Below are positions 29,891-44,832 of a stretch of 64,000 nt of DNA, piece after piece; the stretch's first letter is position 1; each line of letters begins with the position of its first letter. The stretch is from Escherichia coli (GTDB taxonomy: Bacteria; Pseudomonadota; Gammaproteobacteria; Enterobacterales; Enterobacteriaceae). The stretch is from NCBI RefSeq assembly GCF_003334335.1, contig NZ_QOWQ01000014.1; one strand, 5' to 3'. The translations under genes and the position numbers were made by a program. The notes under the pieces were generated by a model. The model was not told where the DNA came from, did not search any database, and worked only from the letters and a program-made list of their open reading frames with translations.

Positions 29891-31503
<1,613 letters not shown>

Positions 31504-35913: not shown

Positions 35914-36223
35914 TATTCCTTGTTATACACATTACGAAAAATAAGACATTTAAGATCATCAAAAGAGGAAAGTAAATGTATTGCGTATAAAGGGATAGAT
36001 TAAATTTATTAAAATTCACGCAGGGAATAATTTATAAAAATATATCATTACAACATATATATTAATTTTATATTTATTTCGCAGCCAAACAGGATAAACA
36101 TCAGTCAGGATAAAGACGTAAAATTTAAGATGAAAGAATATCTGCCGCTTTGATAATCCCAAACAGCAAAAGCATCCGACAGCGAAGTGCCGTTATGTTC
36201 TGTGAAAGTGGAGAAGGTAACCG

Positions 36224-36415
36224 CTAACGTTGTACCGGTGATTCGACGGAGAGTGTGGATTGCTGAGCTTCTTTTTTGCTCTGATGGTGCTGCCAGGCAC
36301 CGACGGACGAGTAGATAAAACGGCCAAAGAAGAAGATAAAGCTGATGAGCAGTACGATACGGGTCATGCGACTGTTAAATCGGTGTCGTTTTCGCATACT
36401 GGTTGCCTGACTCAC
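36224..36415 (-). CDS. yfgG: YfgG, small membrane protein, 63 aa
   Basis: ORF MSQATSMRKRHRFNSRMTRIVLLISFIFFFGRFIYSSVGAWQHHQSKKEAQQSTLSVESPVQR; one predicted transmembrane helix. Confidence 0.8.
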   Translation of the reverse strand: MSQATSMRKRHRFNSRMTRIVLLISFIFFFGRFIYSSVGAWQHHQSKKEAQQSTLSVESPVQR

Positions 36416-36625
36416 AAAAGGTTCCTTGAAGTATGTCCCACGCTGTGGACGGTACTTACATTAAGGCACAACAGGACAAAATGGTCAATTCTTCGTTATG
36501 TAAAAAAGCGTCAGTGGATACATATTTTAATGTTATGGAAGTTAATTTAATTATTTACAATGATGATGTAATAATGATGAATTAACATGATAAACGTAAT
36601 AATTCATTAATCAGGGTTATTTTGT

Positions 36626-36639
36626 TTGATATATATCAA
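36626..36639. promoter_or_regulatory. FNR box TTGATatatATCAA upstream of pdeF
   Basis: Perfect match to the FNR consensus TTGAT-N4-ATCAA, centred about 134 bp upstream of the pdeF ATG in an AT-rich divergent promoter region. Confidence 0.55.
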
Positions 36640-36766
36640 TTGGTACTTTCATATGACACTTAGAATCAATGCTCTCTATAGTGATGAATAATCATCATTC
36701 GAAGTCAGGTGGGATGCCTGTCTGAATACACCTCCTTCAGGATGTGGGGGATTCTGCTGAGCATCT

Positions 36767-39010
36767 ATGAAACTGAATGCAACTTATATAAAAATACGTG
36801 ATAAATGGTGGGGGCTTCCGCTGTTCCTGCCTTCTTTAATCTTGCCCATTTTCGCCCACATTAATACTTTCGCGCATATTTCTTCCGGTGAGGTTTTTCT
36901 CTTTTATCTGCCTCTGGCACTGATGATCAGCATGATGATGTTTTTCAGCTGGGCGGCATTGCCAGGGATCGCCTTAGGGATTTTTGTCCGCAAATATGCA
37001 GAGCTGGGTTTTTACGAAACGCTATCATTAACGGCTAATTTTATTATCATTATCATTCTCTGTTGGGGCGGTTACAGGGTCTTTACTCCCCGGCGTAACA
37101 ACGTTTCACATGGTGATACCCGTTTAATTTCCCAGCGTATATTCTGGCAGATTGTGTTTCCTGCAACGCTGTTTCTGATACTTTTCCAGTTTGCTGCATT
37201 TGTAGGATTACTGGCGAGCAGAGAAAATCTGGTCGGTGTCATGCCTTTTAACCTCGGGACTTTAATCAATTATCAGGCCTTACTGGTGGGTAATCTGATC
37301 GGTGTCCCGCTGTGCTACTTCATCATTCGGGTAGTGCGAAATCCATTTTATTTACGTAGCTATTATTCGCAATTAAAACAGCAGGTTGATGCCAAAGTCA
37401 CCAAAAAAGAGTTCGCGCTCTGGCTACTGGCATTAGGTGCTTTATTGTTGCTGTTATGCATGCCGTTAAATGAAAAAAGCACAATTTTTAGCACCAATTA
37501 TACCTTGTCATTATTGCTGCCCCTGATGATGTGGGGAGCGATGCGCTATGGTTATAAGCTGATTTCGCTGCTCTGGGCGGTCGTGTTGATGATCAGCATC
37601 CACAGCTATCAAAATTACATTCCCATTTATCCTGGCTATACCACGCAGCTGACCATAACCTCCTCCAGTTATCTGGTATTCTCTTTTATTGTCAATTATA
37701 TGGCTGTACTGGCAACCCGTCAGAGAGCGGTAGTCAGACGCATTCAGCGGCTTGCGTATGTGGACCCGGTGGTTCATCTGCCAAATGTTCGCGCCCTGAA
37801 TCGCGCGTTGCGTGATGCCCCCTGGTCTGCGCTTTGTTATTTACGCATCCCTGGCATGGAAATGCTGGTTAAGAACTATGGCATCATGCTGCGGATTCAA
37901 TACAAGCAAAAACTTTCTCACTGGCTGTCACCCTTGCTGGAACCGGGTGAAGATGTTTATCAGCTTTCGGGTAACGATCTCGCGCTGCGACTGAATACAG
38001 AATCGCACCAGGAGCGCATTACCGCACTGGATAGCCATCTCAAGCAATTTCGTTTCTTTTGGGATGGCATGCCGATGCAACCGCAGATTGGCGTCAGTTA
38101 CTGCTATGTGCGCTCGCCAGTGAATCATATCTACCTGCTGCTGGGAGAGCTAAATACGGTCGCCGAACTTTCCATCGTGACCAACGCCCCGGAAAATATG
38201 CAGCGTCGCGGGGCAATGTATTTGCAACGCGAATTGAAAGATAAAGTCGCGATGATGAATCGACTACAGCAGGCGCTGGAACACAACCATTTTTTCCTGA
38301 TGGCCCAGCCGATTACCGGTATGCGTGGTGATGTTTACCATGAAATTCTTCTGCGCATGAAAGGTGAGAATGATGAACTGATCAGCCCCGATAGCTTCTT
38401 GCCGGTCGCGCACGAATTTGGTTTATCGTCGAGTATCGACATGTGGGTCATTGAGCATACGCTGCAATTTATGGCTGAAAACAGAGCGAAGATGCCCGCT
38501 CACCGTTTTGCTATTAATCTGTCTCCAACCTCGGTATGTCAGGCTCGTTTTCCTGTTGAAGTCAGTCAGTTGCTGGCTAAATATCAGATTGAAGCGTGGC
38601 AACTTATTTTTGAAGTCACCGAAAGTAATGCTCTGACCAATGTTAAGCAGGCGCAAATCACCTTGCAGCATCTTCAGGAATTAGGCTGCCAGATTGCGAT
38701 TGATGATTTCGGCACCGGCTACGCCAGCTATGCGCGGCTTAAAAATGTGAATGCCGATCTGCTTAAAATTGACGGCAGTTTTATCCGCAATATTGTGTCA
38801 AATAGTCTGGATTATCAGATAGTGGCATCGATTTGCCACCTGGCGCGAATGAAGAAAATGCTGGTAGTGGCAGAGTACGTTGAAAACGAAGAGATCCGCG
38901 AGGCGGTGCTCTCTTTGGGGATCGATTATATGCAGGGTTATCTTATTGGTAAGCCGCAGCCGTTAATTGATACGCTGAATGAAATCGAACCCATTCGCGA
39001 AAGTGCCTGA
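36767..39010 (+). CDS. pdeF: c-di-GMP phosphodiesterase PdeF (YfgF): MASE1 membrane domain, GGDEF-like and EAL domains
   Basis: ORF 747 aa, MKLNATYIKIRDKWWGLPLFLPSLILPIF...; EIL (EAL-type) region YHEILLRMKGE. Confidence 0.92.
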   Translation: MKLNATYIKIRDKWWGLPLFLPSLILPIFAHINTFAHISSGEVFLFYLPLALMISMMMFFSWAALPGIALGIFVRKYAELGFYETLSLTANFIIIIILCWGGYRVFTPRRNNVSHGDTRLISQRIFWQIVFPATLFLILFQFAAFVGLLASRENLVGVMPFNLGTLINYQALLVGNLIGVPLCYFIIRVVRNPFYLRSYYSQLKQQVDAKVTKKEFALWLLALGALLLLLCMPLNEKSTIFSTNYTLSLLLPLMMWGAMRYGYKLISLLWAVVLMISIHSYQNYIPIYPGYTTQLTITSSSYLVFSFIVNYMAVLATRQRAVVRRIQRLAYVDPVVHLPNVRALNRALRDAPWSALCYLRIPGMEMLVKNYGIMLRIQYKQKLSHWLSPLLEPGEDVYQLSGNDLALRLNTESHQERITALDSHLKQFRFFWDGMPMQPQIGVSYCYVRSPVNHIYLLLGELNTVAELSIVTNAPENMQRRGAMYLQRELKDKVAMMNRLQQALEHNHFFLMAQPITGMRGDVYHEILLRMKGENDELISPDSFLPVAHEFGLSSSIDMWVIEHTLQFMAENRAKMPAHRFAINLSPTSVCQARFPVEVSQLLAKYQIEAWQLIFEVTESNALTNVKQAQITLQHLQELGCQIAIDDFGTGYASYARLKNVNADLLKIDGSFIRNIVSNSLDYQIVASICHLARMKKMLVVAEYVENEEIREAVLSLGIDYMQGYLIGKPQPLIDTLNEIEPIRESA

Positions 39011-44587: not shown

Positions 44588-44832
44588 GACTGCTTTACAC
44601 AACCTTTTTGCACGTCTTTTCCCCAGGCGCGCGGCGAAAGAAGACTTGTGCCAGGGTAAAGGTTAGTTTTCGGATGGAATAATCTTCTTTCATAACCATC
44701 TGAATATAAAATAACTTTATCTCAAACCGTTATCATTTTGACTAAAGTCAACGAAAAGAATATTGCCGCCTTGAAGAAAGGAGGTATAATCCGTCGATTT
44801 TTTTTGTGGCTGCCCCTCAAAGGAGAAAGAGT

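Follow-up and report, generated by a model that had tools for sequence, protein, structure and literature searches.

The FNR box of the class II pdeF (yfgF) promoter of Escherichia coli: geometry, conservation and conditional output

A palindrome upstream of pdeF (yfgF), the gene for a c-di-GMP phosphodiesterase, raises the question of whether it is a working binding site for the oxygen sensor FNR and, if it is, which promoter it serves and under what conditions that promoter fires. The window in which it lies is a stretch of 64,000 nucleotides of E. coli DNA with the RefSeq gene neighbourhood guaB, guaA, yfgI, yfgH, yfgG, pdeF, ppx, ppk; pdeF itself is predicted from the open reading frame list, and from the RefSeq annotation of an identical region, to occupy positions 36767–39010 on the plus strand and to encode a protein of 747 aa. 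Over 801 bp around the palindrome, the window shows 100% identity to K-12-derived genomes, and this segment was found in 5424 of the 5426 complete E. coli genomes. Sequence, promoter geometry, phylogenetic conservation and published binding and expression data lead us to conclude, with high confidence, that the palindrome is the FNR site of a class II pdeF promoter. As such, it is the known oxygen-sensing switch of this promoter, and its recovery from the sequence is a rediscovery of an element that has already been published.

Sequence and promoter geometry of the FNR box

The box, TTGATATATATCAA, is a palindrome located at positions 36626–36639 on the plus strand (centre 36632.5). It matches all 10 specified positions of the TTGAT-N4-ATCAA consensus and is the sole perfect match to this consensus in the 64-kb window, as well as the single FNR site in the pdeF upstream region. 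The distance from the box centre to the pdeF ATG at 36767 is 134.5 bp, which bears out a sequence-only reading of this DNA that had placed an exact FNR consensus about 134 bp upstream of that ATG. The half-sites TTGAT and ATCAA and the N4 spacer are of the FNR type and do not fit the CRP consensus TGTGA-N6-TCACA.

By itself, a perfect match in 64 kb carries little significance: 0.09 such matches are expected by chance per window, and at least one was seen in 9 of 100 dinucleotide shuffles. The functional case therefore depends on the context of the box. Among shuffled 300-nt upstream regions, an FNR box with no more than one mismatch appeared in 2–3% of the trials, and a box accompanied by TAnAAT exactly 21 nt downstream appeared in at most 0.015% (at most 1.5e-4 per locus). 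The position of the box, its conservation and the published ChIP data described below show that it exceeds chance.

The box is followed on the plus strand by a 21-nt spacer (36640–36660), whose sequence is unconserved but whose length is invariant in all orthologues, and then by the hexamer TAGAAT (36661–36666), which has been named as the -10 element by Lacey et al. (PMC3718329). Since the published position of the box is -41.5, this -10 element implies a transcription start at 36674 (±1 nt) on the plus strand and hence a leader of approximately 93 nt. The distance of exactly 21 nt falls within the 21–22 nt that separate the 14-bp inverted repeat from the -10 element in class II promoters. 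At the position of the -35 element, AATTGG (36638–36643, with a 17-nt spacer) and CAATTG (with an 18-nt spacer) each have 0 of 6 matches to TTGACA, and no -35 element is to be expected because a class II promoter is activator-dependent. A class I site would have its centre at least ~61 bp upstream of the start and would be paired with a recognisable -35 element; here, the centre is 28.5 bp before the first base of the -10 element and the -35 element is lacking. Nor does the arrangement resemble that of FNR-repressed promoters, in which the site lies over or past the -10 element or the start, as 21 nt lie between the end of the box and the -10 element downstream of it. The sequence-only reading hung on a start compatible with either class I or class II geometry, and the conserved -10 element 21 nt downstream of the box provides the latter.

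According to the class II scheme, [4Fe-4S]-FNR would dimerise in cells deprived of oxygen and bind TTGAT-N4-ATCAA centred ~41.5 bp upstream of the start. The bound protein would substitute for the missing -35 element and draw RNA polymerase with sigma-70 to the -10 element TAGAAT, so that the c-di-GMP phosphodiesterase would be produced mainly in anaerobic or microaerobic cells. The activating contacts at the pdeF promoter would be those of the general class II model.

Conservation among enterobacteria

Orthologous promoters were collected in a protein-based search that covered a single genome from each species and yielded orthologues from four further Escherichia lineages, Enterobacter asburiae, two Phytobacter, six Kluyvera and one other enterobacterium; Salmonella, Citrobacter and Klebsiella are not among the named sources. 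Outside Escherichia, the orthologues are 57–63% identical. Two loci (L002 and L005) were left out because their upstream sequence was too short to score, leaving 14 usable loci. All 14 have a box with 0–1 mismatch, followed after exactly 21 nt by TAGAAT or TAAAAT. Across the genera, the half-sites TTGA....TCAA and the hexamer TA.AAT are invariant while the spacer and the flanks diverge. Between the box centre and the ATG there are anything from 124.5 to 143.5 bp; what is constrained is thus how far the box lies from the -10 element, not how far it lies from the gene.

A scan of metagenomes was made with a leader-specific pattern that did not contain the box. It returned 120 loci with 87 distinct sequences, 84 of which had enough upstream DNA; removal of one chance pattern match that does not encode PdeF (L190) left 83 true pdeF promoters. 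A box with at most one mismatch, 21 nt and TAnnnT were found in 81 of these 83 distinct promoters. One sequence (L093) has two box mismatches with the geometry unchanged, another (L170), from an E. coli-like contig of low coverage, has a 1-nt deletion in the box, and the box of L129 is normal. The metagenome spacers form 24 clusters that differ from one another at more than 6 of the 21 positions. In other genera, the -10 element at this same distance is variously TAGAAT, TAAAAT, TACAAT or TATAAT. Three metagenome loci (L146, L164 and L183) have TTGACTTAAATCAA, 21 nt and TACAAT. The site is thus under selection in orthologous promoters (14/14 genome loci and 81/83 metagenome promoters), as a class II site should be.

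The same elements are stable within E. coli. At least 5373 of the 5426 complete genomes exactly retain the 30–32 nt around the box, and the sampled variants carry changes only at 36644, in the spacer, and at 36669, leaving the box and the -10 element untouched. Position 36644 is T in the K-12-like window and A in all other Escherichia sequences compared. The longer segment 36596–36680 is fully identical in only 1558 of 5414 E. coli genomes.

What the present comparison adds to the published picture is this footprint, in which the box, the distance of exactly 21 nt between it and the -10 element and the divergent arrangement with yfgG are kept across many enterobacterial lineages. Such broad conservation supports the view that anaerobic control of PdeF is an ancestral, selected trait.

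Separately, two E. coli loci have been rearranged by IS1. In strain SCZE5 (L080), IS1 is inserted at the equivalent of ~36486–36495, at the predicted -35 element of yfgG, and the FNR box is intact. In strain YZ22PE165 (L081), IS1 is accompanied by a deletion equivalent to 36627–36854, which spares only the first base of the FNR box (36626) and takes away promoter and leader together with 88 nt at the start of pdeF, now a pseudogene.

Published regulation and the target of the box

FNR-dependent anaerobic expression of this gene and FNR occupancy of this site in vivo are both on record. Lacey et al. (2013, PMC3718329), citing Lacey, Partridge & Green (2010, Microbiology 156:2873), give the E. 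coli yfgF promoter as class II and FNR-dependent, with TTGAT--ATCAA as an FNR box centred at -41.5 and TAGAAT as the -10 element, and describe yfgF as activated by FNR, with peak expression under anaerobic conditions. Induction has been published for anaerobic cells in stationary phase at 28 °C. The K-12 promoter of Lacey, Partridge & Green (2010) and the one described here are a single locus with an identical sequence, and no feature differs between them. A RegulonDB curation paper has an entry for FNR as activator of yfgF in anaerobiosis, and PdeF protein was undetectable in aerobic cultures and was called 'induced anaerobically' by Sarenko et al. (2017). Myers et al. (2013, PLoS Genet 9:e1003565, PMC3688515) detected the yfgF/yfgG FNR peak with three ChIP-seq peak finders (MOSAiCS, NCIS and CisGenome) as well as by ChIP-chip (Table S5); their bound predicted site, at K-12 position 2627088, is the same 14-mer TTGATATATATCAA with a PWM score of 16.08 (Table S6), and the estimated target of the peak is yfgF, with one known TSS (Table S9). 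The sequence-only reading had proposed anaerobic, FNR-dependent control of pdeF and had named a look-up of FNR ChIP-seq peaks as a check; Lacey et al. and the RegulonDB curation support the proposal, and the Myers peak is present on the exact 14-mer. The other checks that it named, a mapped start and a comparison of a yfgF fusion in wild-type and fnr cells under anaerobic conditions, are likewise in the literature. Experiments published in 2010 established the link from oxygen through FNR to c-di-GMP turnover that the same reading had suggested, and ChIP-seq confirmed it in 2013. In enterobacteria, the FNR site couples oxygen sensing to motility and surface remodelling as well as to c-di-GMP turnover, and to this biology the present analysis adds nothing new.

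A like layout is found in Salmonella Enteritidis, where yfgF (STM2503) has an FNR box TTGAC--ATCAA at -41.5 and the -10 element TACAAT (PMC3718329); the metagenome loci L146, L164 and L183 share this architecture. Compared to E. coli, it has one half-site mismatch and another -10 variant, and FNR dependence in Salmonella Enteritidis is predicted from the sequence alone.

Two more sites in the window, both imperfect, are bound by FNR according to Myers et al. (2013): TTGATCTCGCTCAC (31474–31487) in the guaB/xseA intergenic region and TTGACTTTAGTCAA (44738–44751) in the upp/purM intergenic region. Both belong to the Myers class with no FNR-dependent expression change.

Against this background, the other readings of the palindrome can be weighed. 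That it is a functionless chance occurrence in AT-rich intergenic DNA might be entertained because the local DNA is indeed AT-rich and 9% of the shuffled windows contained a perfect match. However, the site is bound by FNR in vivo, neither the half-sites nor the distance to the -10 element vary over ~24 diverged lineages whose flanks do, and the expectation per locus for box and -10 element together is very low (at most 1.5e-4); a chance origin is refuted by the conservation and ChIP data and has hardly any probability left. Slightly more credit, though still very little, goes to the proposal that the promoter served by FNR is another one, consisting of ATGACA (36653–36658), 18 nt and TATAGT (36677–36682), with the box at about -57, and not the TAGAAT promoter with the box at -41.5. 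This pair was the sole match in a scan for consensus sigma-70 promoters (10/12), but one match compares with a mean of 2.3 in the shuffles, its hexamers have no counterpart at the matching positions of the Enterobacter, Phytobacter and Kluyvera promoters although TAnAAT at +21 does not vary among the orthologues, a class I site centred at -57 would not be productive, and the literature gives TAGAAT and -41.5 (PMC3718329). We therefore rejected the 36653–36682 promoter as no better than shuffled sequence and unconserved outside Escherichia, and retain TAGAAT as the -10 element of the FNR-dependent promoter.

The yfgG gene is the divergent neighbour of pdeF in every orthologous locus, and two-way control by the box was therefore considered. 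That FNR also, or instead, controls yfgG is favoured by the conserved divergent arrangement, by the palindromic nature of the site and by the expression of yfgG, which is 2.2-fold higher anaerobically in the wild type (ratio 0.453, Table S12, PMC3688515). Yet yfgG appears to have a sigma-70 promoter of its own on the minus strand (36458–36488), predicted from a -35 element TTGACC (36488–36483) and a -10 element TTAATG/TAATGT (36464–36458) that coincide with the invariant islands ACATTAAGGCAC and GGTCAATT. The predicted start is near 36451, with the FNR box ~180 bp upstream, outside the class I and class II positions, and a strong anaerobic sigma-70 ChIP-seq peak at K-12 position 2627279 (PMC3688515) maps to approximately 36448 in the window. 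In addition, the minus strand has no conserved -10 element at the mirror-image distance from the box, yfgG is missing from the table of FNR-dependent expression (Table S8, PMC3688515), and Myers et al. attribute the peak to yfgF (PMC3688515). We consider control of yfgG by the box to be quite unlikely and rejected it on account of the ~180-bp distance, the separate promoter, the sigma-70 peak and the absence from the FNR-dependent table. The FNR box is assigned to pdeF, in line with Myers et al.

The RefSeq/PGAP annotation includes a 50-aa 'hypothetical protein' ORF on the plus strand (36433–36585) that overlies the yfgG promoter and the AT-rich tract described below. It is probably a spurious gene call, because its weak cross-genus similarity coincides with conserved promoter DNA.

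Conditional output and the pdeF leader

Occupancy of the site does not always translate into expression. In wild-type cells grown in glucose minimal medium, the yfgF/yfgG peak falls into the Table S9 class of sites that are bound by FNR with no FNR-dependent expression change, and yfgF is not in the wild-type aerobic/anaerobic list (PMC3688515). The FNR ChIP-chip signal at pdeF is low in the wild type (0.35 log2) and significantly higher, at 1.68 log2, in delta-hns delta-stpA cells (Table S7, PMC3688515). Only in this double mutant does yfgF show a +O2/-O2 ratio of 0.23, that is, a 4.3-fold higher anaerobic level (Table S11, PMC3688515). These data of Myers et al. depart from the simple FNR model in that increased occupancy and oxygen-dependent expression are seen only when H-NS and StpA are lacking. 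The sequence-only reading, which amounted to that simple model, thus stands as far as the published control by FNR is concerned and falls short for glucose minimal medium, where FNR dependence is seen only in cells that lack H-NS and StpA.

The window offers a candidate target for H-NS/StpA masking in an AT-rich tract at 36500–36650, where the composition profile gives a GC content of 21–26%; the tract includes the FNR box and lies mostly upstream of it. We infer that this AT-rich upstream DNA makes the output of the promoter conditional through H-NS/StpA. FNR occupancy and output at pdeF seem to be held back by nucleoid proteins or by growth conditions, which refines the class II model and does not contradict it.

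How far such gating goes is a matter of near balance. Stated in full, FNR binding would be insufficient, and output would be gated either by H-NS/StpA acting on the AT-rich DNA or by a conserved element in the leader, so that the promoter would be largely silent under standard laboratory conditions; this would refine the class II explanation and not replace it. The reading draws on the ChIP peak that is unaccompanied by an FNR-dependent change in the wild type in glucose minimal medium, on the rise in ChIP-chip signal and the expression ratio in delta-hns delta-stpA cells, on the low GC content of 36500–36650, and on an invariant block of the leader that is complementary to the start-codon region. 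However, no called NAP peak (H-NS or IHF ChIP-chip) lies over the FNR site in Table S6 (PMC3688515), and FNR-dependent anaerobic expression in otherwise wild-type K-12 is reported by Lacey et al. (PMC3718329). We put the probability of such gating a little short of even.

The yfiD (grcA) promoter, like that of pdeF, has class II activation geometry. Its near-perfect FNR box, TTGATTTAAATCAA, has a PWM score of 17.25 as compared to 16.08 for the pdeF box (Table S6, PMC3688515). In glucose minimal medium, yfiD shows strong FNR- and O2-dependent expression, and a second upstream FNR site is listed for it (PMC3688515), whereas pdeF has a single site and a conditional output.

The pdeF 5' leader (36674–36766, plus strand, ~93 nt), delineated with the help of two alignments (A1 and A2) and of folds, contains sequence that is more extensively conserved than the box. 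The longest invariant stretch of the yfgG–pdeF intergenic region in the cross-genus alignment is not the FNR box but a leader block on the plus strand at 36704–36723 that contains CAGGTGGGATGCCTG. Another invariant segment, GAGCATCT (36759–36766, plus strand), runs on through the start codon and the next base as GAGCATCTATGA (36759–36770). The GGATGC of the leader block (36712–36717) is complementary to GCATCT (36761–36766), which abuts the ATG on its 5' side. In 8 of 11 orthologous leaders, the minimum-energy fold pairs one segment with the other, enclosing a weak inner hairpin, CCC..GGA..GGG; a local alternative hairpin has GGA in its loop, and the leader has two GGA motifs ~28 nt apart.

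The folding statistics speak neither for nor against an RNA structure. RNAalifold recovered from the leader only an invariant CAGGU/GCCUG hairpin with zero covarying pairs; covariation between the leader arms is absent because both arms are invariant. The fold of the E. coli leader has a z-score of -0.44, and the z-scores of the inner hairpins are non-significant. An Rfam scan of 36000–37000 returned no leader family and only a meaningless snoRNA match (E = 0.81). A CsrA CLIP-seq paper has no entry for yfgF or pdeF, a negative result that is probably uninformative because PdeF is undetectable aerobically and anaerobic growth is nowhere mentioned in the text of the paper.

The leader element could be an RNA helix that occludes the initiation region, a site for CsrA or an sRNA, or a DNA site for a protein. 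One scheme, which we regard as rather doubtful, is that pdeF expression needs both FNR at -41.5 and relief of a control element in the leader, namely the invariant block at 36704–36723, with its potential GGATGC/GCATCT pairing and its GGA motifs resembling those of CsrA sites. If this were true, the leader layer, alone or together with H-NS/StpA, would explain how a perfect, FNR-occupied site can exist without FNR-dependent expression in glucose minimal medium.

Just downstream of the leader, in the early part of the pdeF coding sequence, a consensus scan picked out a terminator-like hairpin with a T-rich tail (36807–36831, plus strand), which is probably a chance match (one found, 0.3 expected).
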